Shown here: positions 3,462 through 63,684 of the stretch, one piece after another | Position numbering within the stretch: the stretch's first letter is position 1 | How the letters are laid out: the number at the start of each line of letters is the position of its first letter | Source of the DNA: Vulcanimicrobiota bacterium | Lineage (GTDB): Bacteria > Vulcanimicrobiota > CADAWZ01 > Ess09-12 | DNA length: 64,000 nt | Reading direction: 5' to 3' | Assembly: GCA_031082125.1 (NCBI GenBank) | Contig: JAVHLM010000002.1 | Coordinates: forward strand, 239,012-303,011 | Notes under the pieces: model-generated | Seen by the model: only the letters and a program-made list of their open reading frames with translations | The model's database searches: none | What the model was told of the DNA's origin: nothing | Translations under genes and position numbers: made by a program

Positions 3462-3857
3462 ATGAATTTTCTCAAAAAGCTTTTTCCCGGAAAGAGGCAG
3501 TCCGCCGCGGCCAGGGATTCAGGACTTTTCCCCGAGAGCACCGTCGTCTTAACCGTTGATGACCACGCTGTCATCAGTGCCAGGCCGGGAGGGCTCACGG
3601 AGCGGGTCACATGGGACGAGCTTTCCCGTGTGGAGATCATGACTACCGATGAAGGTCCCCTGGTGGCCGATGTATTCTGGGTGCTCCATGGGAAGGACCG
3701 GGGATGCGTGATACCCCAGGGTGCCACCAACGAGCATGACCTCATCGAGAAGCTTGTCAGGCTTCCAGGGTTCAACCACAACGAAATGATAGAAGCCATG
3801 GCCTCGACGGAGAACCGCACCTTTCTGGTCTGGGAGAAAGGGGGAGAATCCCGCTAG
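3462..3857 (+). CDS. Hypothetical protein (131 aa)
   Basis: Track ORF with ATG start; no recognisable family. Preceded by an 11-codon uORF whose stop overlaps this ATG (ATGA). Confidence 0.4.
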   Translation: MNFLKKLFPGKRQSAAARDSGLFPESTVVLTVDDHAVISARPGGLTERVTWDELSRVEIMTTDEGPLVADVFWVLHGKDRGCVIPQGATNEHDLIEKLVRLPGFNHNEMIEAMASTENRTFLVWEKGGESR

Positions 3858-4897: not shown

Positions 4898-5926
4898 ATG
4901 AAAAGATCTTTCTGTCAGGCCCTCGCGGCAATCCTTATCCTGGCAGCCCTTGCAGCGGGGAACAGCGTTTATGCGGCGCCGGTGAAGTTTCAGGACAAGA
5001 TGCTCTGGATACAGCTGGGGAACCAGATCAAGGACATTGATGACGCCATGCTGGAAAAGATAGCCGAGTGCGGCTTCTCCAAGGTGATTCTGCTGCACTC
5101 TTCAATCAATGAGCAGGGCTACTTCCCTGTCCTCCGATCCCTCACGAAGCGCTGCCATGCAAAGAAGATCAAGGTGAGCATGGGGACTCTTGTCTTCAAG
5201 GACACCTACCAGAAGCCTTACTGGCTCCGCAACCCGGGCCTGAGGAAATGCGACAGGGACGGGAAATACAGCGACACCAAGTATTATCACTACCAGATAT
5301 GCCCTAACAACCCTGTAAACCATGAGTACGCCGCGGGCCTCCTTCTCAGGGAGGCACAGGAGGCCGGCGTGGACGAAATCCATATCGACTATGAGATAGA
5401 GCCCTGCTTCTGCCCGTACTGTGTCGCCGATTTCCAGGAGAAGCACAAGAAGGACCCGCGCGTGCTCTCTGACAAGGACAGGGACTGGCTCGTGTGGCGC
5501 TCCCGCAAGACCCGCGATTTCTTCGAGGTGCTTGCCCGCAAGTGCTACGGGAGCTTCCCCACCTTCCTCATCTCTGCCACGGCGCCCGTCATCGGCCTTC
5601 CCGGCGGCTTCACGGCCTATGGCACAGACCTGCGCTATGAGGATCTCACCCAGTATGTGGACGAGTTCCAGCCCATGATCTACCTTTCGGTGAAGACAGA
5701 CCCCTCCGTTGCCGGCGACAAGTTCGCTGCCATCCAGCGCCGTGTGCTGGACAAGTATGTGGTCCCCGGCATCATTATCAACGAGGAGGGAACGATGCAG
5801 ATAAAGACCAGGGACCGTCTGATGGCGGAGCTTGAAGGGCTCGCCCGCAAGGGGGCAAAAGGCATTGCTGTCTTTGAGGTTCGTTACATCAACGATGAGC
5901 TTAAGGGACTCCTGCGCGACCTTTAG
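4898..5926 (+). CDS. Secreted hypothetical protein, possible glycoside-hydrolase-like TIM barrel
   Basis: Signal peptide MKRSFCQALAAILILAALAAGNSVYA; alternating beta/alpha pattern (VILLHSS, EIHIDYEIE); CFCPYC motif. Family assignment tentative. Confidence 0.45.
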   Translation: MKRSFCQALAAILILAALAAGNSVYAAPVKFQDKMLWIQLGNQIKDIDDAMLEKIAECGFSKVILLHSSINEQGYFPVLRSLTKRCHAKKIKVSMGTLVFKDTYQKPYWLRNPGLRKCDRDGKYSDTKYYHYQICPNNPVNHEYAAGLLLREAQEAGVDEIHIDYEIEPCFCPYCVADFQEKHKKDPRVLSDKDRDWLVWRSRKTRDFFEVLARKCYGSFPTFLISATAPVIGLPGGFTAYGTDLRYEDLTQYVDEFQPMIYLSVKTDPSVAGDKFAAIQRRVLDKYVVPGIIINEEGTMQIKTRDRLMAELEGLARKGAKGIAVFEVRYINDELKGLLRDL

Positions 5927-55908: not shown

Positions 55909-56126
55909 ATTATCGTTTTATGAAAAGAATTTTTGCGGAGTACTGCGCAAGAAGGAGGTGGCGCTTTTTATCGCGAACTCATGGGGAAAGAGATCCCTAT
56001 AGAGCAGGCCCTGTGCCGCACCGGCGATCGGCCGGCGGGAGGCGAACTGCCCGGCGCTCTTTTATTTTCCCCTATGATACCAGGGAAAGATGGAGATACA
56101 GCATTCTGTTATGGGAGGTAACGGTT

Positions 56127-56411
56127 TTGAACGCGTACGAGGTGACTTATATTATCGATTCGGCACTGACGGAAGAGAATGTACAGAAGACCATTGAGAA
56201 GTTTTCTGACCATGTGAGCAAGGCAGGAGGCCAGGTGGTGAACGTGGACAACTGGGGAAAGAGGCGCCTTGCCTATGAGATAAAGGGAAAGCTCGAAGGG
56301 GTATACGTGACGATGCGGTACAATGCCCCCGAGAACGTCTCATCGGAGCTTCGCCGCATTATGGGCATCGATGAAGAAATCGTGAGAAACATCATCATCA
56401 GAGTGAATTAA
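56127..56411 (+). CDS. rpsF: 30S ribosomal protein S6
   Basis: TTG start after GGGAGG RBS; NAYEVTYIID ... WGKRRLAYEI; track ORF extends upstream to 55920. Confidence 0.8.
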   Translation: MNAYEVTYIIDSALTEENVQKTIEKFSDHVSKAGGQVVNVDNWGKRRLAYEIKGKLEGVYVTMRYNAPENVSSELRRIMGIDEEIVRNIIIRVN

Positions 56412-56422
56412 AGAGAGGTTGC

Positions 56423-56866
56423 ATGTCAAGCTACAACAAGGTGATTCTTATCGGGCGCGTCACAGCCCTGCCCGAGATGCGCTATACCCAGACCGGCAAG
56501 CCTGTCACGTCCTTCACCATAGCGGTGGACCGGCCCCGCAGGAGTGAGGGCAAGGACAGGGAGACCGATTTTATCAGCATAGTGACCTGGCAGAAGCTTG
56601 CCGAGATATGCTCCCGGTACCTTGACAAGGGGAAGCTCATCTGTATCGAGGGCAGGCTCCAGGTGCGCACCTATACGACGGCAGACGGCCAGAAGAGAAA
56701 GGTCTATGAGGTCGTCGCCTCTGACATGCGTATGCTGGGAAGGCCCAAGAGCGAGGGGGGAGCTTCCCAGGACGAGACGGAAGGCCACATCGTGGAAAGC
56801 GGTGACAGGGATCTCGATCACCTGGGCATCTCTGACATAGGAATGGAGGATGACGTGCCCTTTTAG
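56423..56866 (+). CDS. ssb: Single-stranded DNA-binding protein
   Basis: 147 aa; OB-fold N-terminus NKVILIGRV; acidic C-terminal tail ending DDVPF. Confidence 0.9.
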   Translation: MSSYNKVILIGRVTALPEMRYTQTGKPVTSFTIAVDRPRRSEGKDRETDFISIVTWQKLAEICSRYLDKGKLICIEGRLQVRTYTTADGQKRKVYEVVASDMRMLGRPKSEGGASQDETEGHIVESGDRDLDHLGISDIGMEDDVPF

Positions 56867-56929
56867 CGCGCCTGTCCCGCCGGCGGCACTCAGTGCCCCG
56901 TGAAAAGAACTAGAGAAAGGATGAACGGT

Positions 56930-57166
56930 ATGAAGCGTGAGAGCAATATGAGGATGCGGAAGCCCAAGAGGAAGGTGTGCCACTTCTGCGTGAACAAGAT
57001 TGTGAGCCTTGATTATAAGGATTTCAATGCCCTCAGAAAATATGTAAGCGAGCGGGGCAAGATCCTTCCCCGGAGGATCTCCGGTAACTGCGCGAAGCAC
57101 CAGCGGGCCCTTACGAGCGCCATTCAGAGGGCGCGGGCAATAGCGCTTCTTCCTCACACCATATAA
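56930..57166 (+). CDS. rpsR: 30S ribosomal protein S18
   Basis: 78 aa; CHFC ... DYKD ... [16 protein letters not shown] ... LLPHT; start chosen at ATG 56930 (RBS GAAAGG 9 nt upstream); track ORF begins 56900. Confidence 0.8.
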
Positions 57167-57263
57167 TCCTCTCCCGGCGCATGCACCCTGAAGATATGCC
57201 CCCGCGGGGGGCGGCGGTGCGGTCGTGAAGGGGGAGACACATTATTTTCTTGAGGTGATAGAC

Positions 57264-57713
57264 ATGAAGGTAATCCTTAAAAAAGACGTGGAAAAACTCG
57301 GTGAAGAGGGTGCCATCCTGGAGGTCAAGAACGGCTATGCCCGGAATTACCTTCTTCCCAATAACCTTGCGATTGTCGCTTCCTCCGGGAACATGAAGAC
57401 CTGGGAGAACGAGAAGAAGACGCGGGAGCGCCGCGTTGCCAAGAATACCGAGAAGGCGAAAAATCTTGCCGACAGCCTTTCCCAGAAGAACTTCACCATA
57501 AAGGCGAAGGCGGGAGAAGAAGGGAAGCTCTACGGTTCCGTGACCTCGCAGGACATTGTTGAGCTCGTGCTCGCACAGGCCAAGATAGAGCTTGACAGGA
57601 AAAAGCTGACGCTTGCGGAGCCGATAAAAAAGACGGGAAGCTACAAGGTTCCCGTGAAGCTCTTCAAGGGCGTGACGGCAGAGATCAGTCTTGAAGTGGC
57701 GCCTGAAGAGTAG
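57264..57713 (+). CDS. rplI: 50S ribosomal protein L9
   Basis: 149 aa from ATG 57264 (RBS GAGGTG); MKVILKKDVEKLGEEG ... GYARNYLLP. Confidence 0.85.
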   Translation: MKVILKKDVEKLGEEGAILEVKNGYARNYLLPNNLAIVASSGNMKTWENEKKTRERRVAKNTEKAKNLADSLSQKNFTIKAKAGEEGKLYGSVTSQDIVELVLAQAKIELDRKKLTLAEPIKKTGSYKVPVKLFKGVTAEISLEVAPEE

Positions 57714-57751
57714 GCGCTCCGTTTCCCCGAATGTGAGAGGAGAATCGACCT

Positions 57752-59095
57752 GTGCAGATCTCTGTTGACAGGGTTCCGCCGCAGAACTTAGACGCGGAGA
57801 CATCGGCACTCGGTGCTTGCCTTATTGAAAAGGAGGCGCTCGCAAGGGTTGCAGAGATACTGCCCGATCCCGCTGATTTTTACCGCACGGCTCACCAGGT
57901 CATCTATAACGCCATCCTGAAGCTTTATGAGCGGGGCGAGCCTGTCGATCTGATCACGCTCACCAACGAGCTTCGCAACAGCAGCAAGCTCGACGAGGTG
58001 GGCGGCGTGGCGTACCTCACCTTCCTGATAGATTCCGTCCCCACGGCGGCCAACGCCGAGTATTACTCCACCATCATCAAGGAGAAGGCGATACTGAGAA
58101 ACCTCATCACCGCAGGCATGAACATCACAGGGATGGGATACCGCGAGGATGAGGCTGCCGAAATGATAGTGGACCGCGCGGAGACGGAGATATTCGGCAT
58201 CGCGCAGAAGCGGATGCTCTTCGATTTTGTGCCCCTCAAGAAGGTCATGGCGACCACCTTCGAAAAAATCGAGGACCTCTATGCGAGGAAGGCCCATGTG
58301 ACGGGTGTGTCCACCGGCTACAGGGATCTTGACCATTACACCGCAGGCCTTCAGAAGGCCAACCTCATTGTCGTCGCCGCGAGGCCCGGCATGGGGAAAA
58401 CCGCCATCTGCCTCAATATCGCCCATTACCTTGCCACGAGGGAGAAGCTGCCCGTGGCCATCTTCAGTCTTGAGATGGCCAAGGAGGAGCTCGCCCAGCG
58501 CTTTCTCTGCGCCGAGGCACGCATTGATGCCCAGCGCCTCCGCACCGGCTACCTCGAGGAGACTGACTGGCCCCGCCTCACAAGGGCAATGAACGTGCTC
58601 TGCGAGGCACCCGTCTTCATTGATGACACACCCAACCTCTCGGTCATGGAAATGCGCTCCAAGGCCCGCCGCCTCAAGAGCAAGCATGGCATCGAGCTTG
58701 TGGTCATCGATTACATCCAGCTCATCAGGGGCTCGTCGCGGATTGAAAACCGCAACCAGGAGATATCGGAGATATCCCGCCAGCTGAAAGCCCTCTCCAA
58801 GGAGCTGAGTGTTCCCGTTATCGCCATCTCACAGCTCTCCCGCGAGGTGGAGAAGCGCCAGGACAAGCGCCCCATGCTCTCCGATCTCAGAGAGTCGGGG
58901 GCTATCGAGCAGGAAGCCGACATGGTCATATTCATTTACCGCGATGATTATTACAATCCCCATTCAGAGAAGAAGAACAAGGCCGAGATCATCATCGCCA
59001 AGCAGAGAAGCGGTCCCCTGGCCACGATAGATCTCATATTCCTTAAGCAGTTCACCGTCTTTGTGTCAGAGGAGAAGATCCATGTGGAGGAATAG
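57752..59095 (+). CDS. dnaB: Replicative DNA helicase DnaB
   Basis: 447 aa; Walker A ARPGMGKT; RecA-like motifs; conserved N-terminal domain. Confidence 0.9.
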   Translation: MQISVDRVPPQNLDAETSALGACLIEKEALARVAEILPDPADFYRTAHQVIYNAILKLYERGEPVDLITLTNELRNSSKLDEVGGVAYLTFLIDSVPTAANAEYYSTIIKEKAILRNLITAGMNITGMGYREDEAAEMIVDRAETEIFGIAQKRMLFDFVPLKKVMATTFEKIEDLYARKAHVTGVSTGYRDLDHYTAGLQKANLIVVAARPGMGKTAICLNIAHYLATREKLPVAIFSLEMAKEELAQRFLCAEARIDAQRLRTGYLEETDWPRLTRAMNVLCEAPVFIDDTPNLSVMEMRSKARRLKSKHGIELVVIDYIQLIRGSSRIENRNQEISEISRQLKALSKELSVPVIAISQLSREVEKRQDKRPMLSDLRESGAIEQEADMVIFIYRDDYYNPHSEKKNKAEIIIAKQRSGPLATIDLIFLKQFTVFVSEEKIHVEE

Positions 59096-59114
59096 ATGAA
59101 AGGAGTGTGGTGCT

Positions 59115-59747
59115 ATGGGTACGACGAAGAAAGTGGTAAAGAAGTCAGTAAAAAAGTCTCTTGAGGCCCATCTGGAGAAGGTCTACAGCGACAAATACCA
59201 GGTGGTGACCGGTGTGCCGCTCGCGATGGCAAAGAAGTTCATCAAGACCCTTCTCACCCAGGTGGTGAAGGAGAGCAAGGATGCCGGCACCTATAATCTT
59301 CCCCCCGATCACGGCAAGAGCATGCTCGAGGCCGCCAAGAAGGATCAAAAGGTGAAGAAGGCCATCGAGCTGAAAAGGAAAGAAGGGGTCACCGACGAGG
59401 ATTTCATCAACTGGTGGGCCGTTCCCGATGTGGAAAGGCGCCTTCTGCTTCGCATCGATGAAACAAACAGGATGGGCCTCTTCATGAAGTTCACCAACAT
59501 CGACAGGATGCCCGCCACGGAGGCGAACAGGCTTGTCCTCAAGTATCACCCCCTCTACGGTGAGCCCCAGGAGACCGACAATGAGGCTGATATGGACAGG
59601 CCCCTTCCCGCCGAGCTCCGCGAGCGGATCACACGGTACGCCGAAAACCTTAAGGAAATCCCCGTCGAGGAGCAGCAGGCTCTTATTGACAAATTTTCCA
59701 CTCTCAATGCCCGTGTCCGGCATGAGATAAAGAACAAAGCTCTCTAA
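59115..59747 (+). CDS. Hypothetical protein with Lys-rich N-terminus (210 aa)
   Basis: MGTTKKVVKKSVKKS basic tail; no recognised motifs; 19 nt downstream of dnaB. Confidence 0.5.
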   Translation: MGTTKKVVKKSVKKSLEAHLEKVYSDKYQVVTGVPLAMAKKFIKTLLTQVVKESKDAGTYNLPPDHGKSMLEAAKKDQKVKKAIELKRKEGVTDEDFINWWAVPDVERRLLLRIDETNRMGLFMKFTNIDRMPATEANRLVLKYHPLYGEPQETDNEADMDRPLPAELRERITRYAENLKEIPVEEQQALIDKFSTLNARVRHEIKNKAL

Positions 59748-59757
59748 GGGGGGGGCC

Positions 59758-60738
59758 ATGCCAGGCACAAGAGAACAGGTCTTCAGGCAGCTTCAGATAC
59801 TGAGGAGGATCCAGGTGCGCTCCACTCTCACCGCGCAGGACCTTGCGAGGGAGCTCGAGGTGAGCGTGAGGACCATATACAGGGACATAGGCCTCCTCAA
59901 TGAAAGCGGTTTTCCAATCTATTTTGATAACGGCTACCGCCTGCCGGGCGATTATTACTTTCCCCAGATCAACTTCGAGATGGATGAGCTTGTAGCTCTC
60001 TTCCTGAGCAGCAGGTTCCTGCTGCGCTACCGCGATCTTCCTTACTACAGGCTCATCAAGTCAGCGATGGACAAGATAGAGGGGAGCGTCAACGCACAGT
60101 ACAGGGAGATGCTCACAAGGCTTGACCACCAGTTTGCCGTGGGCATTCCCTACGAGATGTTCGAGGGAACCTCGTCAAAGACCACTGACACGGTGAACAA
60201 GGCCATTCTTGATCACAGGTGCCTTGAGATTCTCTACCACACCTTCATGGATGACACGGTAAAGACAAGGAAAGTTGAGCCCTACGGCATATTTTTCTCC
60301 CAGGACAACTGGTATATTCTGGCATTCTGCCACCTCAGGAGGGAGATAAGGGAGTTCAACCTGAAGCGCATCAAGAAAGCCACCATTCTCGAGGAGAAAT
60401 TCAGCCTCCCCGAGGGCTTTACCATTTCCCGGCACCTGTGCCATCCCTGGGATTTCGGCGAGGACGACCCCGTGAAGGTGGTGATACGCCACAGCCCCCC
60501 CGCGGCCAGGAAGGCAAGAGAAGCCCAGTGGCATCCCTCGCAGGAGTTGAAGGAGCAAGATGACGGCTCCGTCATCATGACGGTGAAAGTGAGGGCCCCG
60601 GAAAACATGATCGCCATGATCCTCTCCCAGAGAGGTGAGGTGGAGGTTGTCTCGCCCATTTCCCTGAGGCATGAAGTGGCCTCAGAGATCAGGAAGATGG
60701 CTCTCCTCTATGACGGGAAGCCAAGGGGATCACCGTGA
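59758..60738 (+). CDS. WYL-domain transcriptional regulator (HTH-WYL-WCX architecture)
   Basis: 326 aa; N-terminal HTH (QDLARELEVSVRTIYRDI), central WYL-type region (NWYILAFCHLRREIREFNLKRI), C-terminal extension. Confidence 0.7.
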   Translation: MPGTREQVFRQLQILRRIQVRSTLTAQDLARELEVSVRTIYRDIGLLNESGFPIYFDNGYRLPGDYYFPQINFEMDELVALFLSSRFLLRYRDLPYYRLIKSAMDKIEGSVNAQYREMLTRLDHQFAVGIPYEMFEGTSSKTTDTVNKAILDHRCLEILYHTFMDDTVKTRKVEPYGIFFSQDNWYILAFCHLRREIREFNLKRIKKATILEEKFSLPEGFTISRHLCHPWDFGEDDPVKVVIRHSPPAARKAREAQWHPSQELKEQDDGSVIMTVKVRAPENMIAMILSQRGEVEVVSPISLRHEVASEIRKMALLYDGKPRGSP

Positions 60739-62292
60739 GGATTTTCTCTTCTTCCCCTTTTTCTGGGTGAATTTTCGGGCCTGTGCCGCTTCTTTCTCTT
60801 TCAAGGGCGGCTTTTCTTCTGCCTCAGGGGTCTTCCCGGCATCAGGGGGTATTTCCCTCTCTTCCAGCCGCTTGACGGCCGACATGACCAGCGTTTCACC
60901 AAGCCCTTTCAGGTGGGAAGCGAGTTCCTCGTGGATGCTTCTTGCTCTGCGCTCCGCCTCATCTATGATGAGGGCTCCCCTTTTCTCCGCTTCCCCGAGA
61001 ATCCGGTCATACTCATCGCGCGCATGGGCAAAAAGCGTCGAGAAGTGCTCGTCGAGGGCGCTTTTTGTCACTTTGATCAGGGCTTCCTCAAACAGGCTTT
61101 TCATATCAAGCTGAGGCGCGGCCTGCGATGCCTCACAGGGGACAGGTGGCGCTGCAGGCATTGGTTCGTCGGCACCTGCCTGGAGATCTCCTGCTTCCAG
61201 AGGCACCGGTGCGGACATAGAGATCTCGGCAGGCACCGTGATCCCGGGTGGTATTTCAGCGACAGCCTCGGCAGCCGGTGCTGTTTCGGCTTCAGGGGTG
61301 GCTTCAAATACAGCTTCCGGTGGTGCCTCTGGGACTGCTTTCGCCCTTTTGAGGATCTTTTCCATTTTTTCTGCCCGCTCCCCCCGGAGTCCCAGGGAGG
61401 CTGCCTTGCCGGCGACAAGATCCATGCACTCAGGCGGCACCGGTGCCGGCGATGAGTCATAACTGTCAAGCAGGGAGATTGAGAGGTACGCATTGAGCTC
61501 AAGAGCTTTGGTGAGCCACTGAAGTGAATGGCTGCTGTCGCCGAGCTCCCTGTAGAGATCAAAGAGCTCCCGACAGAAGAGAAAGTGGGCGTCATGCTCA
61601 AAAGCGTTGAGGAAATAGGGAAGGGCGCTCTCGCGCCCTCCCCCGTGAAAAGCAGATTTCCCTATGTAGTAGTAAGTCCACGAAAAGTTTCTGTTCATTG
61701 AGAGAAGCTCTTCGAAGACCGTCCTGGCTTTCCCAAAGTCACCGGCGATGAAGGTGTCATACCCCATGGAGAAGCCATCGAACCACTCCTTTGCATTCTT
61801 GAGCTTTGAATATATCTGGGTGGCAAGCTTTTCCGAGGCTTTTGCCCTGGGGAAGAGACCCAGGAACGCCTTGAAGGTGAGGAGGGCCTGCTCTGTGGTG
61901 CCCAGGTTCTGATAGGCTTTCCCGAGGGTGATATAGACCTTTTCCGCCATATCGGACTTGCCGCCCACGGTAAAATCAAGGTCGATGCCCCGTTGGAGGC
62001 TGTGCCGGGCATTTTTCCAGTCGTGGGCCTTGAAATAATAAAGCCCCTGCAGGAAATAGGGCTCACTGAAAAAGGGATCTTCCTGAATGGCACCATCGAG
62101 GGTCTTGAGGAATTCTTCCCTCTGGACTCTCGGATCAATGAGCTGGGCCTTTTTCAGGAGCGCAGCGGCCTCGATAAGCATAGCACCCGGTCTTTCTATG
62201 GATATAAAAGGTCCGGGTACAATTTCTCCATAGCGGCGCCCTGTTCCTCTGGAATGGGAAAAGATTGTGCAGGAAAGAGGCGCTTCTCCCAT
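60730..62292 (-). CDS. TPR-like repeat protein with Pro/Ala-rich linker and C-terminal coiled-coil (start uncertain; internal ATG at 62184)
   Basis: 520 aa track ORF; TPR-like helices (YFLQGLYYFKAHDWKNARHSLQRGIDLD); low-complexity PEAPPEAVFEATPEAETAPAAEA; charged helical C-terminus. Confidence 0.5.
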   Translation of the reverse strand: MGEAPLSCTIFSHSRGTGRRYGEIVPGPFISIERPGAMLIEAAALLKKAQLIDPRVQREEFLKTLDGAIQEDPFFSEPYFLQGLYYFKAHDWKNARHSLQRGIDLDFTVGGKSDMAEKVYITLGKAYQNLGTTEQALLTFKAFLGLFPRAKASEKLATQIYSKLKNAKEWFDGFSMGYDTFIAGDFGKARTVFEELLSMNRNFSWTYYYIGKSAFHGGGRESALPYFLNAFEHDAHFLFCRELFDLYRELGDSSHSLQWLTKALELNAYLSISLLDSYDSSPAPVPPECMDLVAGKAASLGLRGERAEKMEKILKRAKAVPEAPPEAVFEATPEAETAPAAEAVAEIPPGITVPAEISMSAPVPLEAGDLQAGADEPMPAAPPVPCEASQAAPQLDMKSLFEEALIKVTKSALDEHFSTLFAHARDEYDRILGEAEKRGALIIDEAERRARSIHEELASHLKGLGETLVMSAVKRLEEREIPPDAGKTPEAEEKPPLKEKEAAQARKFTQKKGKKRKSSR

Positions 62293-62373
62293 GAATCCTT
62301 AATATCCCCGGGTGAAGAAGCCTTTTCTGCAATGGGTGATCATTCCTCCCATGAGGGGAGAAGAGGTGCCATT

Positions 62374-63684
62374 ATGAAGACAACCGTAGGCGATCCCCCC
62401 CGCTGGTACCGCTGGGGTATATTGCTCATGGTGAGCATCACTGTTTTTGGAAGTTATCTCGCTTACGACAGCATCGGCCCTATCGGCCCCATGATCAAGA
62501 AGGCCCTGGGCTATGACAGCAGGCAGCTCGGCCTTCTCTACAGCATTTACAGCATCCCCAACATCGTGATGGTCTTCCTTGGAGGGTTTGTCATAGACAA
62601 GATCGGGACCCGCCTCGGCGGCTTCATCTATGCCTTCCTGGTGCTGCTGGGCGTTCTTATCACCGCCATTGCACCCTCATGGCACCCCGTGCCTTCCTTC
62701 ATCATGCAGGCTATCCCCGCAGAGTGGCAATGGAGCCCCGTGTTTATCTGGATGCTCCTTGGCCGCTTTGTCTTCGGCCTCGGCTCGGAGTCTCTCATTG
62801 TGGCCCAGAGCACCATCATTGCCCGGTGGTTCAAGGGCAATGAGCTTGCCCTCGCTTTCGGCCTTAATCTCACCGTGAGCCGCCTGGGAACTTTTGCCGC
62901 CTTTTTTACCTTCGGGTGGATAGCCGACCATTTCCGGTCAATCCAACCCGTGCTCTGGGCGTCAGTGGTGCTCTGCGCCGTCTCGCTTGCCTCATATCTG
63001 ATCTATATCGCCATGGATAAAAACGCCGAGCGCAGGTTCGGCCTTTCTATGAGCGATGGGGGAGGCGATAAGGTCCTTCTTTCCGACATCTGGAAGTTTC
63101 CTGCCTCATTCTGGTACATCAGCACCCTCTGCGTGCTTTTCTACTCTTCCATCTTCCCTTTCACGGCCTTTTCCACGGACTTTTTCCACGAGAAGTGGGG
63201 ATACTCCCAGGATTATGCGAGCAAGATCTCTAGCATCATCATCACCTTTTCAATGATATGCACGCCGATTTTCGGAACTCTTATCGACCGCTACGGGAGA
63301 AGGGCCTCGGTCATGATAGTCGGCTCCCTTATGCTGATACCGACCTATCTGCTGATGGGCTACACTTCTCTTCCCCCGTGGATTCCCATGTCCATCATGG
63401 GTATAGCCTTCTCGCTCGTGCCGGCGGCCATGTGGCCCTCGATGCCTCTCATCATCAATGAGGCAAGGCTTGGCACTGCCTACGGCCTCATGACCATGAT
63501 ACAGAACTTCGGCCTTGCCCTCTTCCCCTTCGTCATCGGCTGCGTACATGACAAGACCGGCAGCTACGTGCCGGCCATGCTTGTCTTTTCATCCCTTGGC
63601 GTTGCCGGGATTGTCTTTGCCGTCCTTCTCTACCTCAGGGAAAGGGAACGCCTCGAGCTTGGAAGACCGGCTACGCCTCCTTGA
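62374..63684 (+). CDS. Major facilitator superfamily transporter
   Basis: 436 aa from ATG 62374 (RBS GAGGTG); 12 predicted TM segments; MFS loop motif GGFVIDKIGTR. Confidence 0.8.
   Translation: MKTTVGDPPRWYRWGILLMVSITVFGSYLAYDSIGPIGPMIKKALGYDSRQLGLLYSIYSIPNIVMVFLGGFVIDKIGTRLGGFIYAFLVLLGVLITAIAPSWHPVPSFIMQAIPAEWQWSPVFIWMLLGRFVFGLGSESLIVAQSTIIARWFKGNELALAFGLNLTVSRLGTFAAFFTFGWIADHFRSIQPVLWASVVLCAVSLASYLIYIAMDKNAERRFGLSMSDGGGDKVLLSDIWKFPASFWYISTLCVLFYSSIFPFTAFSTDFFHEKWGYSQDYASKISSIIITFSMICTPIFGTLIDRYGRRASVMIVGSLMLIPTYLLMGYTSLPPWIPMSIMGIAFSLVPAAMWPSMPLIINEARLGTAYGLMTMIQNFGLALFPFVIGCVHDKTGSYVPAMLVFSSLGVAGIVFAVLLYLRERERLELGRPATPP

Follow-up and report, generated by a model that had tools for sequence, protein, structure and literature searches.

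What are a WYL-domain regulator and a lysine-rich protein doing immediately behind the gene for the replicative DNA helicase? The question is raised by a 64,000-nucleotide stretch of a Vulcanimicrobiota bacterium (assembly GCA_031082125.1, contig JAVHLM010000002.1, positions 239,012 to 303,011), hereafter called the window, in which dnaB is followed on the same strand by an open reading frame (ORF) for a 210-amino-acid protein, ORF210, and by the gene for a 326-amino-acid transcription factor, WYL326. A sequence-only reading had proposed a possible local damage- or stress-responsive regulatory module tied to the replication genes; its ORF coordinates and lengths, the N-terminal sequence KKVVKKSVKKS and the start of ORF210 19 nucleotides (nt) past dnaB were all exact. 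The classical rpsF-ssb-rpsR-rplI-dnaB cluster is extended here, in one uncultured lineage, by two co-oriented and tightly spaced genes. The best explanation of the locus as a whole, to which we give a probability of about 0.5, is that WYL326 would act as a homodimer sensing single-stranded DNA (ssDNA), and that ORF210 would have been recruited into the dnaB operon and retargeted there.

The identity of WYL326 (positions 59758-60738, + strand) as a winged helix-turn-helix (wHTH)-WYL-WCX regulator of the YafY/COG2378 type can be stated with high confidence, and NCBI annotates the gene product as a 'YafY family protein'. The predicted architecture of HTH, WYL and C-terminal extension was borne out by Pfam profiles, all far above their cut-offs: HTH_11 (PF08279; residues 10-59, positions 59785-59934; 5.9e-15, 55 bits against a cut-off of 25), WYL (PF13280; residues 143-209, positions 60184-60384; 6.4e-21, 74.6 bits against 21.8) and WCX (PF25583; residues 238-315, positions 60469-60702; 6.6e-17, 62 bits against 24), all on the + strand. 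The AlphaFold model, built on 26 homologues with a predicted local distance difference test (pLDDT) score of 80.5, agreed: a winged HTH of three helices and a beta wing spans residues 4-61, linker helices follow at 75-151, the five strands of the barrel lie within 154-214, and residues 239-319 form the alpha/beta WCX domain. The WCX domain aligned to that of PafC and to the dimer domain of DriD, and the wHTH was the best-conserved portion among orthologues. A six-frame profile search of the window found no second WYL gene.

When the solved relatives were ranked by E value, PafBC came first (6sj9, 2.3e-13), followed by PafC (7p5x, 5.1e-11) and the DriD chains (7u02/8tp8, about 1e-8), and BrxR (7t8k, 3e-3) and a related CapW-type chain (7qfz, 9e-3) were the weakest. 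WYL326 has the canonical W185-Y186-I187 motif (context QDNWYILAF) and lacks RWHVR, the motif that in place of WYL marks the CapW/BrxR repressors (PMC11662680). On the basis of this ranking and of the W-Y-I motif without RWHVR, WYL326 resembles the activator branch (PafBC, DriD) more closely than the defence-repressor branch (CapW, BrxR). It was therefore hard to maintain that WYL326 is a repressor of the BrxR/CapW kind that guards a defence island against phages. The generic HTH-WYL profiles of PADLOC did match WYL326 (1.8e-46), although these profiles describe a domain architecture and not a defence context. As the sequence-only reading had remarked, the flanks hold no defence genes: ORF210 and the neighbouring TPR-repeat gene had no PADLOC match, the flanking genes are ribosomal, replication and transport genes, and viral contigs held no relatives of the ORF210 family. 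The context thus effectively refutes the defence explanation, and WYL326 is a new member of a well-known regulator class in a housekeeping setting.

The ligand groove was mapped with HMMER alignments against the published ssDNA contacts of DriD (PMC9186387) and PafBC (PMC11804915). In its WYL domain the protein carries Y160, R171, W185-Y186-I187, R198, F200, N201, K203 and R204. Of the aligned positions, K169 corresponds to R176 of DriD, R171 to R178, Y186 to Y192, F200 to W206, R198 to R204 of DriD and R198 of PafC, R204 to R210 of DriD and R204 of PafC, and N201 to R207 of DriD, R201 of PafC and R211 of PafB. R171, Y186, R198, F200 and R204 were invariant in ten orthologues, and Y160, R171 and R198 were invariant across 26 homologues with identity down to 26%. 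The predicted ssDNA groove thus looks functional overall, with one clade-specific change. The ligand of DriD, PafBC, SiwR, DdaA and CapW is ssDNA (PMC9186387, PMC11804915, PMC10693628, PMC13010146, PMC11662680), and we put the chance that WYL326 also takes ssDNA slightly above even. The retained contact residues, together with these published WYL regulators, make a damage- or replication-stress-responsive role for WYL326 a reasonable inference.

The clade-specific change lies at position 201: WYL326 has Asn there, whereas 75 of the 82 related WYL loci encode Arg or Lys. The corresponding PafC R201 (DriD R207) is one of two highly conserved arginines of PafB and PafC, and the PafB equivalent is needed for ssDNA binding (PMC11804915). 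With Asn at this position the ligand could differ, and the domain might sense RNA or a cyclic dinucleotide, for example, in which case WYL326 would be no sensor of DNA damage. A WYL regulator that senses cyclic di-GMP has reportedly been described, a point in favour of such a ligand. The remaining contact residues, however, are all conserved, and the structurally characterised wHTH-WYL-WCX regulators compared here all take ssDNA. Moreover, position 203 is a Lys that is invariant in the clade, whereas Asp, Ser or Gly occurs there elsewhere; since residues 201 and 203 lie two apart on one strand of the model, the charge lost at N201 may have moved to K203, which could replace it. We therefore regard a different ligand as unlikely.

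The arrangement of the genes places WYL326 in line with the replication genes. dnaB (57752-59095, + strand) was identified by TIGR00665 (2.9e-176), DnaB_C (6.5e-112) and the DnaB N-terminal domain (1.8e-33). The 19-nt spacer behind it (59096-59114, + strand) contains an AAGGAG ribosome-binding site and gave no hit in the terminator scan; ORF210 (59115-59747, + strand), which starts MGTTKKVVKKSVKKS, is followed by WYL326 after 10 nt. Between dnaB and the end of WYL326 the terminator scan found nothing but weak in-gene matches, and promoter-like sites occurred at chance level. The only promoter-like site nearby in the window was at 56127-56155, directly 5' of rpsF. In three relatives a hairpin after rplI is followed by about 110 nt before dnaB, which suggests a separate dnaB-ORF-WYL transcription unit in those three.

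For the comparison of the pair, nine related loci were used: L003/L005, L006, L007, L009, L010/L011/L083, L012, the P0027 contig, the P0026 contig and the window itself. The relatives are metagenome-assembled genomes (MAGs) labelled "Eremiobacteraeota" or "Vulcanimicrobiota". An ORF of 206-223 amino acids preceded the WYL gene in all nine loci, and dnaB preceded the ORF wherever the contig extended that far. The ORF-WYL spacers were mostly 3-11 nt (53 nt in L007 and 157 nt in L003), and the dnaB-ORF spacers were 12-21 nt (213 nt in L003). The two long spacers flanking the ORF in L003 (L003:2095-2307 and L003:2929-3085) are taken up by heptamer-like units (GACTATA/GACTAAA; CACAAAGG) repeated in tandem, the far end holding an inverted copy, and resemble hairpin inserts of the miniature inverted-repeat transposable element (MITE) or repetitive extragenic palindromic (REP) type. 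Identity between the window and its relatives was 53-59% for ORF210 and 56-62% for WYL, against 80-84% for DnaB, 67-73% for SSB, 63-65% for MFS, 59-61% for Obg and about 40% for TPR; judged by these values, ORF210 and WYL behave as ordinary vertically inherited chromosomal genes evolving at core-gene rates. The dnaB-ORF210-WYL pairing is real and confined to one lineage, and the expectation that the pair would be conserved together held inside this lineage, in nine loci with dnaB, and failed outside it, where neither partner keeps the other.

ORF210 is a genuine gene, with homologues in many phyla and a well-defined model of ten helices (pLDDT 89.2; predicted template-modelling score 0.83), and it proved to belong to a far larger family than a word-indexed search, which returned only 18 relatives, would indicate. 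When 1.84 billion cluster representatives were searched with a profile, 893 members emerged at E<=1e-3, of which 315 reached E<=1e-30, mostly of about 200 amino acids; these family clusters (about 900) are defined at 50% identity. A scan of one genome per species yielded 68 loci, none of them (0/68) from a cultured isolate, in Acidobacteriota, Patescibacteria, Planctomycetota, Nitrospirota, Omnitrophota, Desulfobacterota and others. The remote-homology search recommended for the 210-amino-acid protein came back empty: ORF210 matched nothing in Pfam, NCBIfam, PADLOC, PHROGs or the PDB sequence profiles, and 102 diverse family members gave no meaningful match in Pfam or NCBIfam and none in PADLOC, PHROGs or the PDB sequence profiles. 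The family is nevertheless marked by the motifs EGVTDEDIxWW, YGDP, DDRPLPxEL and SxNAxxR. In ORF210 the first is EGVTDEDFINWW (residues 90-101, positions 59382-59417, + strand), in which G91, D96, W100 and W101 are invariant in alignment A1 and G91 and D96 are at least 90% conserved in the 102 diverse members. The third is DRPLPAEL (residues 161-168, positions 59595-59618, + strand), in which D161, R162, P163, L164, P165 and E167 are invariant in A1 and P163, L164, P165, E167 and L168 are at least 90% conserved in alignment A4. In our reading of the alignments, the family has no conserved His, Cys or Ser that would hint at a hydrolase.

The genomic surroundings of the family were heterogeneous. 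No shared neighbour emerged when all ORFs of 80 loci were clustered or when 33 close co-oriented neighbours were compared all against all, and in a Pfam census of 84 immediate neighbours at most two shared one Pfam family. A phage origin of ORF210 was rejected, since no relatives of the family were found in viral contigs. Fusions were found with a GT2 glycosyltransferase, in frame at the N-terminus and in a single lineage (L033:5116-6576; OY970295.1, a complete Thermodesulfovibrionales MAG chromosome), with the membrane domain DUF4328 and with Methyltransf_24; P0061 and P0068 are also among the fused members. Together with the transmembrane segments at some N-termini (13 of 166 members have one to three predicted transmembrane helices), the fusions point toward the membrane and not toward DNA. 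The ORF210 family is thus sizeable and entirely unannotated, and it is the more novel element of the pair.

The N-terminus is the least conserved region of this family, and it is there that ORF210 departs from its homologues. Among the family proteins P0048-P0193, 48 of 121 short members start with MG and two hydrophobic residues (MGFFSKLFG, MGLFSSLFG, MGILSRIFG), and a looser hydrophobic pattern is found in 73 of the 121. We take this amphipathic N-terminal motif to be comparable to membrane-targeting helices such as that of PspA. An unrelated ORF of 131 amino acids elsewhere in the window (3462-3857, + strand) starts MNFLKKLFPG, which raises the possibility that these organisms use the motif more widely as a targeting signal. 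ORF210 of the window has no M-G-hydrophobic-hydrophobic-x-x-hydrophobic-hydrophobic motif. It begins instead with the polybasic, lineage-specific tail MGTTKKVVKKSVKKSL (59115-59162, + strand), which is disordered in the model (pLDDT 43 for residues 1-10). A variable-length basic tail rich in Ala, Lys and Pro occurs in all clade members: the window has MGTTKKVVKKSVKKS, relatives have MGRMKKTKDKS, MGKVKKTQEKS and MAKTKSATRAQKKAQPAPKKEKMKRSK, and in P0004 the tail extends to about 28 such residues. Compositionally the lysine run is modest, with six Lys per ten residues in a protein of 13% Lys, and a rough hand estimate for it, corrected over all windows in ORF210, came to about 0.1. The description of the N-terminus as histone-tail-like therefore fits its composition. 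It does not fit its ancestry, because the N-termini of the homologues are hydrophobic or transmembrane; the median isoelectric point (pI) of the family is 6.0, and the nearest homologues outside the clade have a pI of 4.8-5 and no basic tail. On these alignments the lysine tail looks like a lineage-specific replacement of an apparent membrane-targeting segment, not like a histone relic.

The same evidence bears on the proposal that ORF210 is a histone-like or nucleoid-associated DNA binder, or a helper of DnaB such as a loader or modulator. The polybasic tail is present throughout the clade and ORF210 lies directly 3' of dnaB in the nine loci, as such a role would lead one to expect. On the other side, no HU/IHF, H-NS, Lsr2, histone, HTH, AAA+ or DciA-type (DUF721) domain was detected in ORF210 and its model found no fold match; many family members have a pI of 4.8-5 without a basic tail, homologues bear membrane-type N-termini, and outside the clade dnaB is nowhere within 6 kb in about 70 homologous loci. 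We consider this proposal improbable.

A weightier question is whether ORF210 and WYL326 belong together at all. They may be neighbours by descent, functionally unrelated and standing last in a conserved housekeeping cluster; WYL326 would then control genes elsewhere or be a minor local regulator, and ORF210 would keep the role that its family has in other phyla. In the long related contigs the 12-gene neighbourhood of rpmA, obg, rpsF, ssb, rpsR, rplI, dnaB, ORF, WYL, TPR (on the opposite strand) and MFS, usually with Rrf2 next, is syntenic throughout, so conservation of the pair is inseparable from linkage by descent. The ORF210 family elsewhere stands alone, without a shared operon partner: in about 70 loci outside the lineage neither a WYL homologue nor DnaB occurs within about 6 kb. 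Conversely, 80 related WYL loci are without ORF210; the next-nearest WYL homologue (32% identity) adjoins CdhD and ferredoxin genes, and 79 further metagenomic loci of the YafY type contain no ORF210-family gene and no DnaB. A regulator with distant targets would have precedents in DriD and PafBC, both of which control distant genes (PMC9186387, PMC11804915). Two observations speak against mere descent: the genes have kept spacers of 3-21 nt although their proteins have diverged to about 55% identity, in contrast to the variable spacers elsewhere in the block, and the change at the N-terminus of ORF210 coincides with its arrival in the operon. We judge the descent-only explanation to fall clearly short of an even chance, yet to deserve serious weight. 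A real functional link between WYL326 and ORF210 is, for its part, doubtful.

The block synteny and the separate lives of the two families outside the lineage count against our preferred explanation, namely the ssDNA-sensing WYL homodimer with a recruited ORF210 in the dnaB operon, and so do several further results. In the window there is no distinct promoter region ahead of dnaB, where the spacer from rplI is just 38 nt; the ORF210 model, without a fold match, shows no recognisable DNA-binding fold; and position 201 has lost its basic residue. Inverted repeats upstream of neighbouring genes had been suggested as candidate operators, and none could be found: inverted repeats in 57100-61200 and the promoter and terminator scans gave no operator, palindromes in the rplI-dnaB spacers of five related loci were only the rplI terminator hairpins, and the dnaB 3' end and spacer, aligned over seven loci, showed no motif and no conservation beyond codon constraint.

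The mechanism that we favour can be set out as follows. WYL326 would work as a homodimer, by analogy with other single-gene WYL regulators, and would bind short ssDNA in a basic groove flanked by the WYL and WCX domains, as suggested by the retention of most contact residues of DriD, PafBC and CapW. Replication stress or DNA damage would supply the ssDNA signal, and this signal would alter how WYL326 binds promoters or recruits RNA polymerase. WYL326 would probably share a transcript with SSB, DnaB or both, so that its level would track the expression of replisome genes. The likeliest targets would be its own unit (dnaB-ORF210-WYL), a dispersed damage and repair regulon, or both. More tentatively, ORF210 may have been recruited into the operon once, in the ancestor of the lineage, and may on that occasion have exchanged a hydrophobic N-terminal anchor for the polybasic tail. 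It could then be a co-expressed accessory factor, retargeted by the tail and perhaps binding a polyanion (DNA or an acidic lipid), though not histone-like. The strongest version, in which ORF210 was converted from a membrane-anchored into a polybasic, replisome-linked factor that is expressed with DnaB, is controlled by an ssDNA-sensing WYL regulator and forms with it a dedicated replication-stress module, strikes us as improbable.

Links to replication control and to a regulon were also sought in the DNA around the genes. A perfect DnaA box, TTATCCACA, lies 5' of dnaB in L012 (about 5900-5910), and boxes upstream of dnaB with one mismatch occur in L009 and L010 and with two mismatches in L007 (about 910-920). 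In the window no DnaA box was found near dnaB, and the eight one-mismatch matches across the 64 kb are no more than chance would give. A search for recA, lexA and uvr genes in the window came back empty, so that it offers no repair promoters for comparison.

Upstream of dnaB the + strand carries, with approximate start codons, rpsF (about 56133-56411; Pfam Ribosomal_S6), ssb (56423-56866; SSB), rpsR (within 56900-57166; Ribosomal_S18) and rplI (about 57264-57713; Ribosomal_L9_N/C), and gene order places rpmA and obg on the same strand ahead of rpsF. The spacer between obg and rpsF holds in relatives (L009:3958-4279, L010:4056-4273, L012:4062-4258) a conserved stretch that includes ATGAAATTTCTTCATCCCATGGAAGGAGGTGGGCG, of which GAAGGAGGTGGCGC is all that the window (55909-56200) retains; a leader or a short ORF may account for the stretch. 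Downstream, the convergent TPR-repeat gene (60730-62292, - strand; TPR_2 8.3e-12) is a syntenic neighbour of the pair. The WYL stop codon overlaps its 3' end by 9 nt (60730-60738), and the window has no terminator there, whereas the relative L010 has 111 nt and a strong hairpin at this junction. The TPR protein diverges far more quickly than the proteins around it, retaining about 40% identity, over 43% of its length, where the others reach 56-84%. Its C-terminal half is rich in Glu and Lys and gives weak coiled-coil matches of the ATP-synthase-B and DivIVA-like kinds, and its polybasic end reads KKGKKRKSSR. The MFS transporter ORF as listed (61993-63684; TTG start at 61993, 563 amino acids) overlaps the TPR gene by 300 nt. 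Since the MFS proteins of relatives have 442-473 amino acids, the true start in the window is probably near 62374 (MKTTVGD...).

For the remainder of the window, an Rfam scan of all 64 kb found no family at its gathering score, and no tRNA genes were found. N-terminal sequences alone indicate a trp operon at about 5.9-13 kb (- strand), two Hsp70-like genes at 28.5-33.1 kb, a Ser/Thr kinase-like gene at 33.8-37.3 kb, a priA-like gene at 37.3-39.6 kb and a clpB-like gene at 49.9-52.6 kb.

Nothing at this locus overturns current understanding. Should WYL326 sense ssDNA and share a transcript with ssb and dnaB, a poorly known and mostly uncultured phylum would have in it a simple candidate regulator of its damage or replication-stress response, and the WYL activators would gain a setting outside both defence and the Actinobacteria. 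Apart from the pairing, the ORF210 family, with its strongly conserved motifs and without annotation, structural relative or conserved context, merits a family entry of its own.

Among known systems, PafBC of Actinobacteria (PDB 6sj9, 7p5x), an ssDNA-activated activator of the DNA-damage response, is the best-scoring solved relative of WYL326. The two have in common the WY(L/I) motif and an R-x-F-x-x-x-R strand, in which WYL326 has two of the three arginines. However, PafBC combines two WYL protomers, as a heterodimer or as a fusion, whereas WYL326 is encoded by a single gene; and PafBC lies in the Pup-proteasome locus, whereas WYL326 is flanked by dnaB, ORF210, TPR and MFS genes in a source labelled Eremiobacteraeota. 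CapW and BrxR (PDB 7t8k, 7qfz), the repressors of defence islands, have the same three-domain architecture, and the ligand of CapW is ssDNA, but WYL326 has no RWHVR and no adjacent CBASS, BREX or other defence genes.

DriD of Caulobacter crescentus (PDB 8tp8, 7u02), a homodimeric, ssDNA-activated activator, is likewise the product of a single gene, with 327 amino acids to the 326 of WYL326. It has the same wHTH-linker-WYL-WCX layout, and the equivalents of its R178, Y192, R204 and W206 are kept. The similarity is nevertheless distant (E 1.6e-8, over residues 167-314 only), and WYL326 did not qualify as a DriD orthologue, the marks of which are similarity over the full length and conservation of Y168, R176, R178, Y192, R204 and R207; R207 and R176 are replaced by Asn and Lys, and the genomic context is unlike that of DriD, among whose targets is didA. 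By description alone, WYL326 can also be likened to SiwR of Mycobacterium smegmatis and DdaA of Acinetobacter, stand-alone homodimeric regulators outside defence that respond to genotoxic stress via ssDNA (PMC10693628, PMC13010146). The targets are DinB-like genes next to siwR for SiwR and aciT and recA for DdaA, whereas WYL326 adjoins ORF210 and, beyond it, dnaB.

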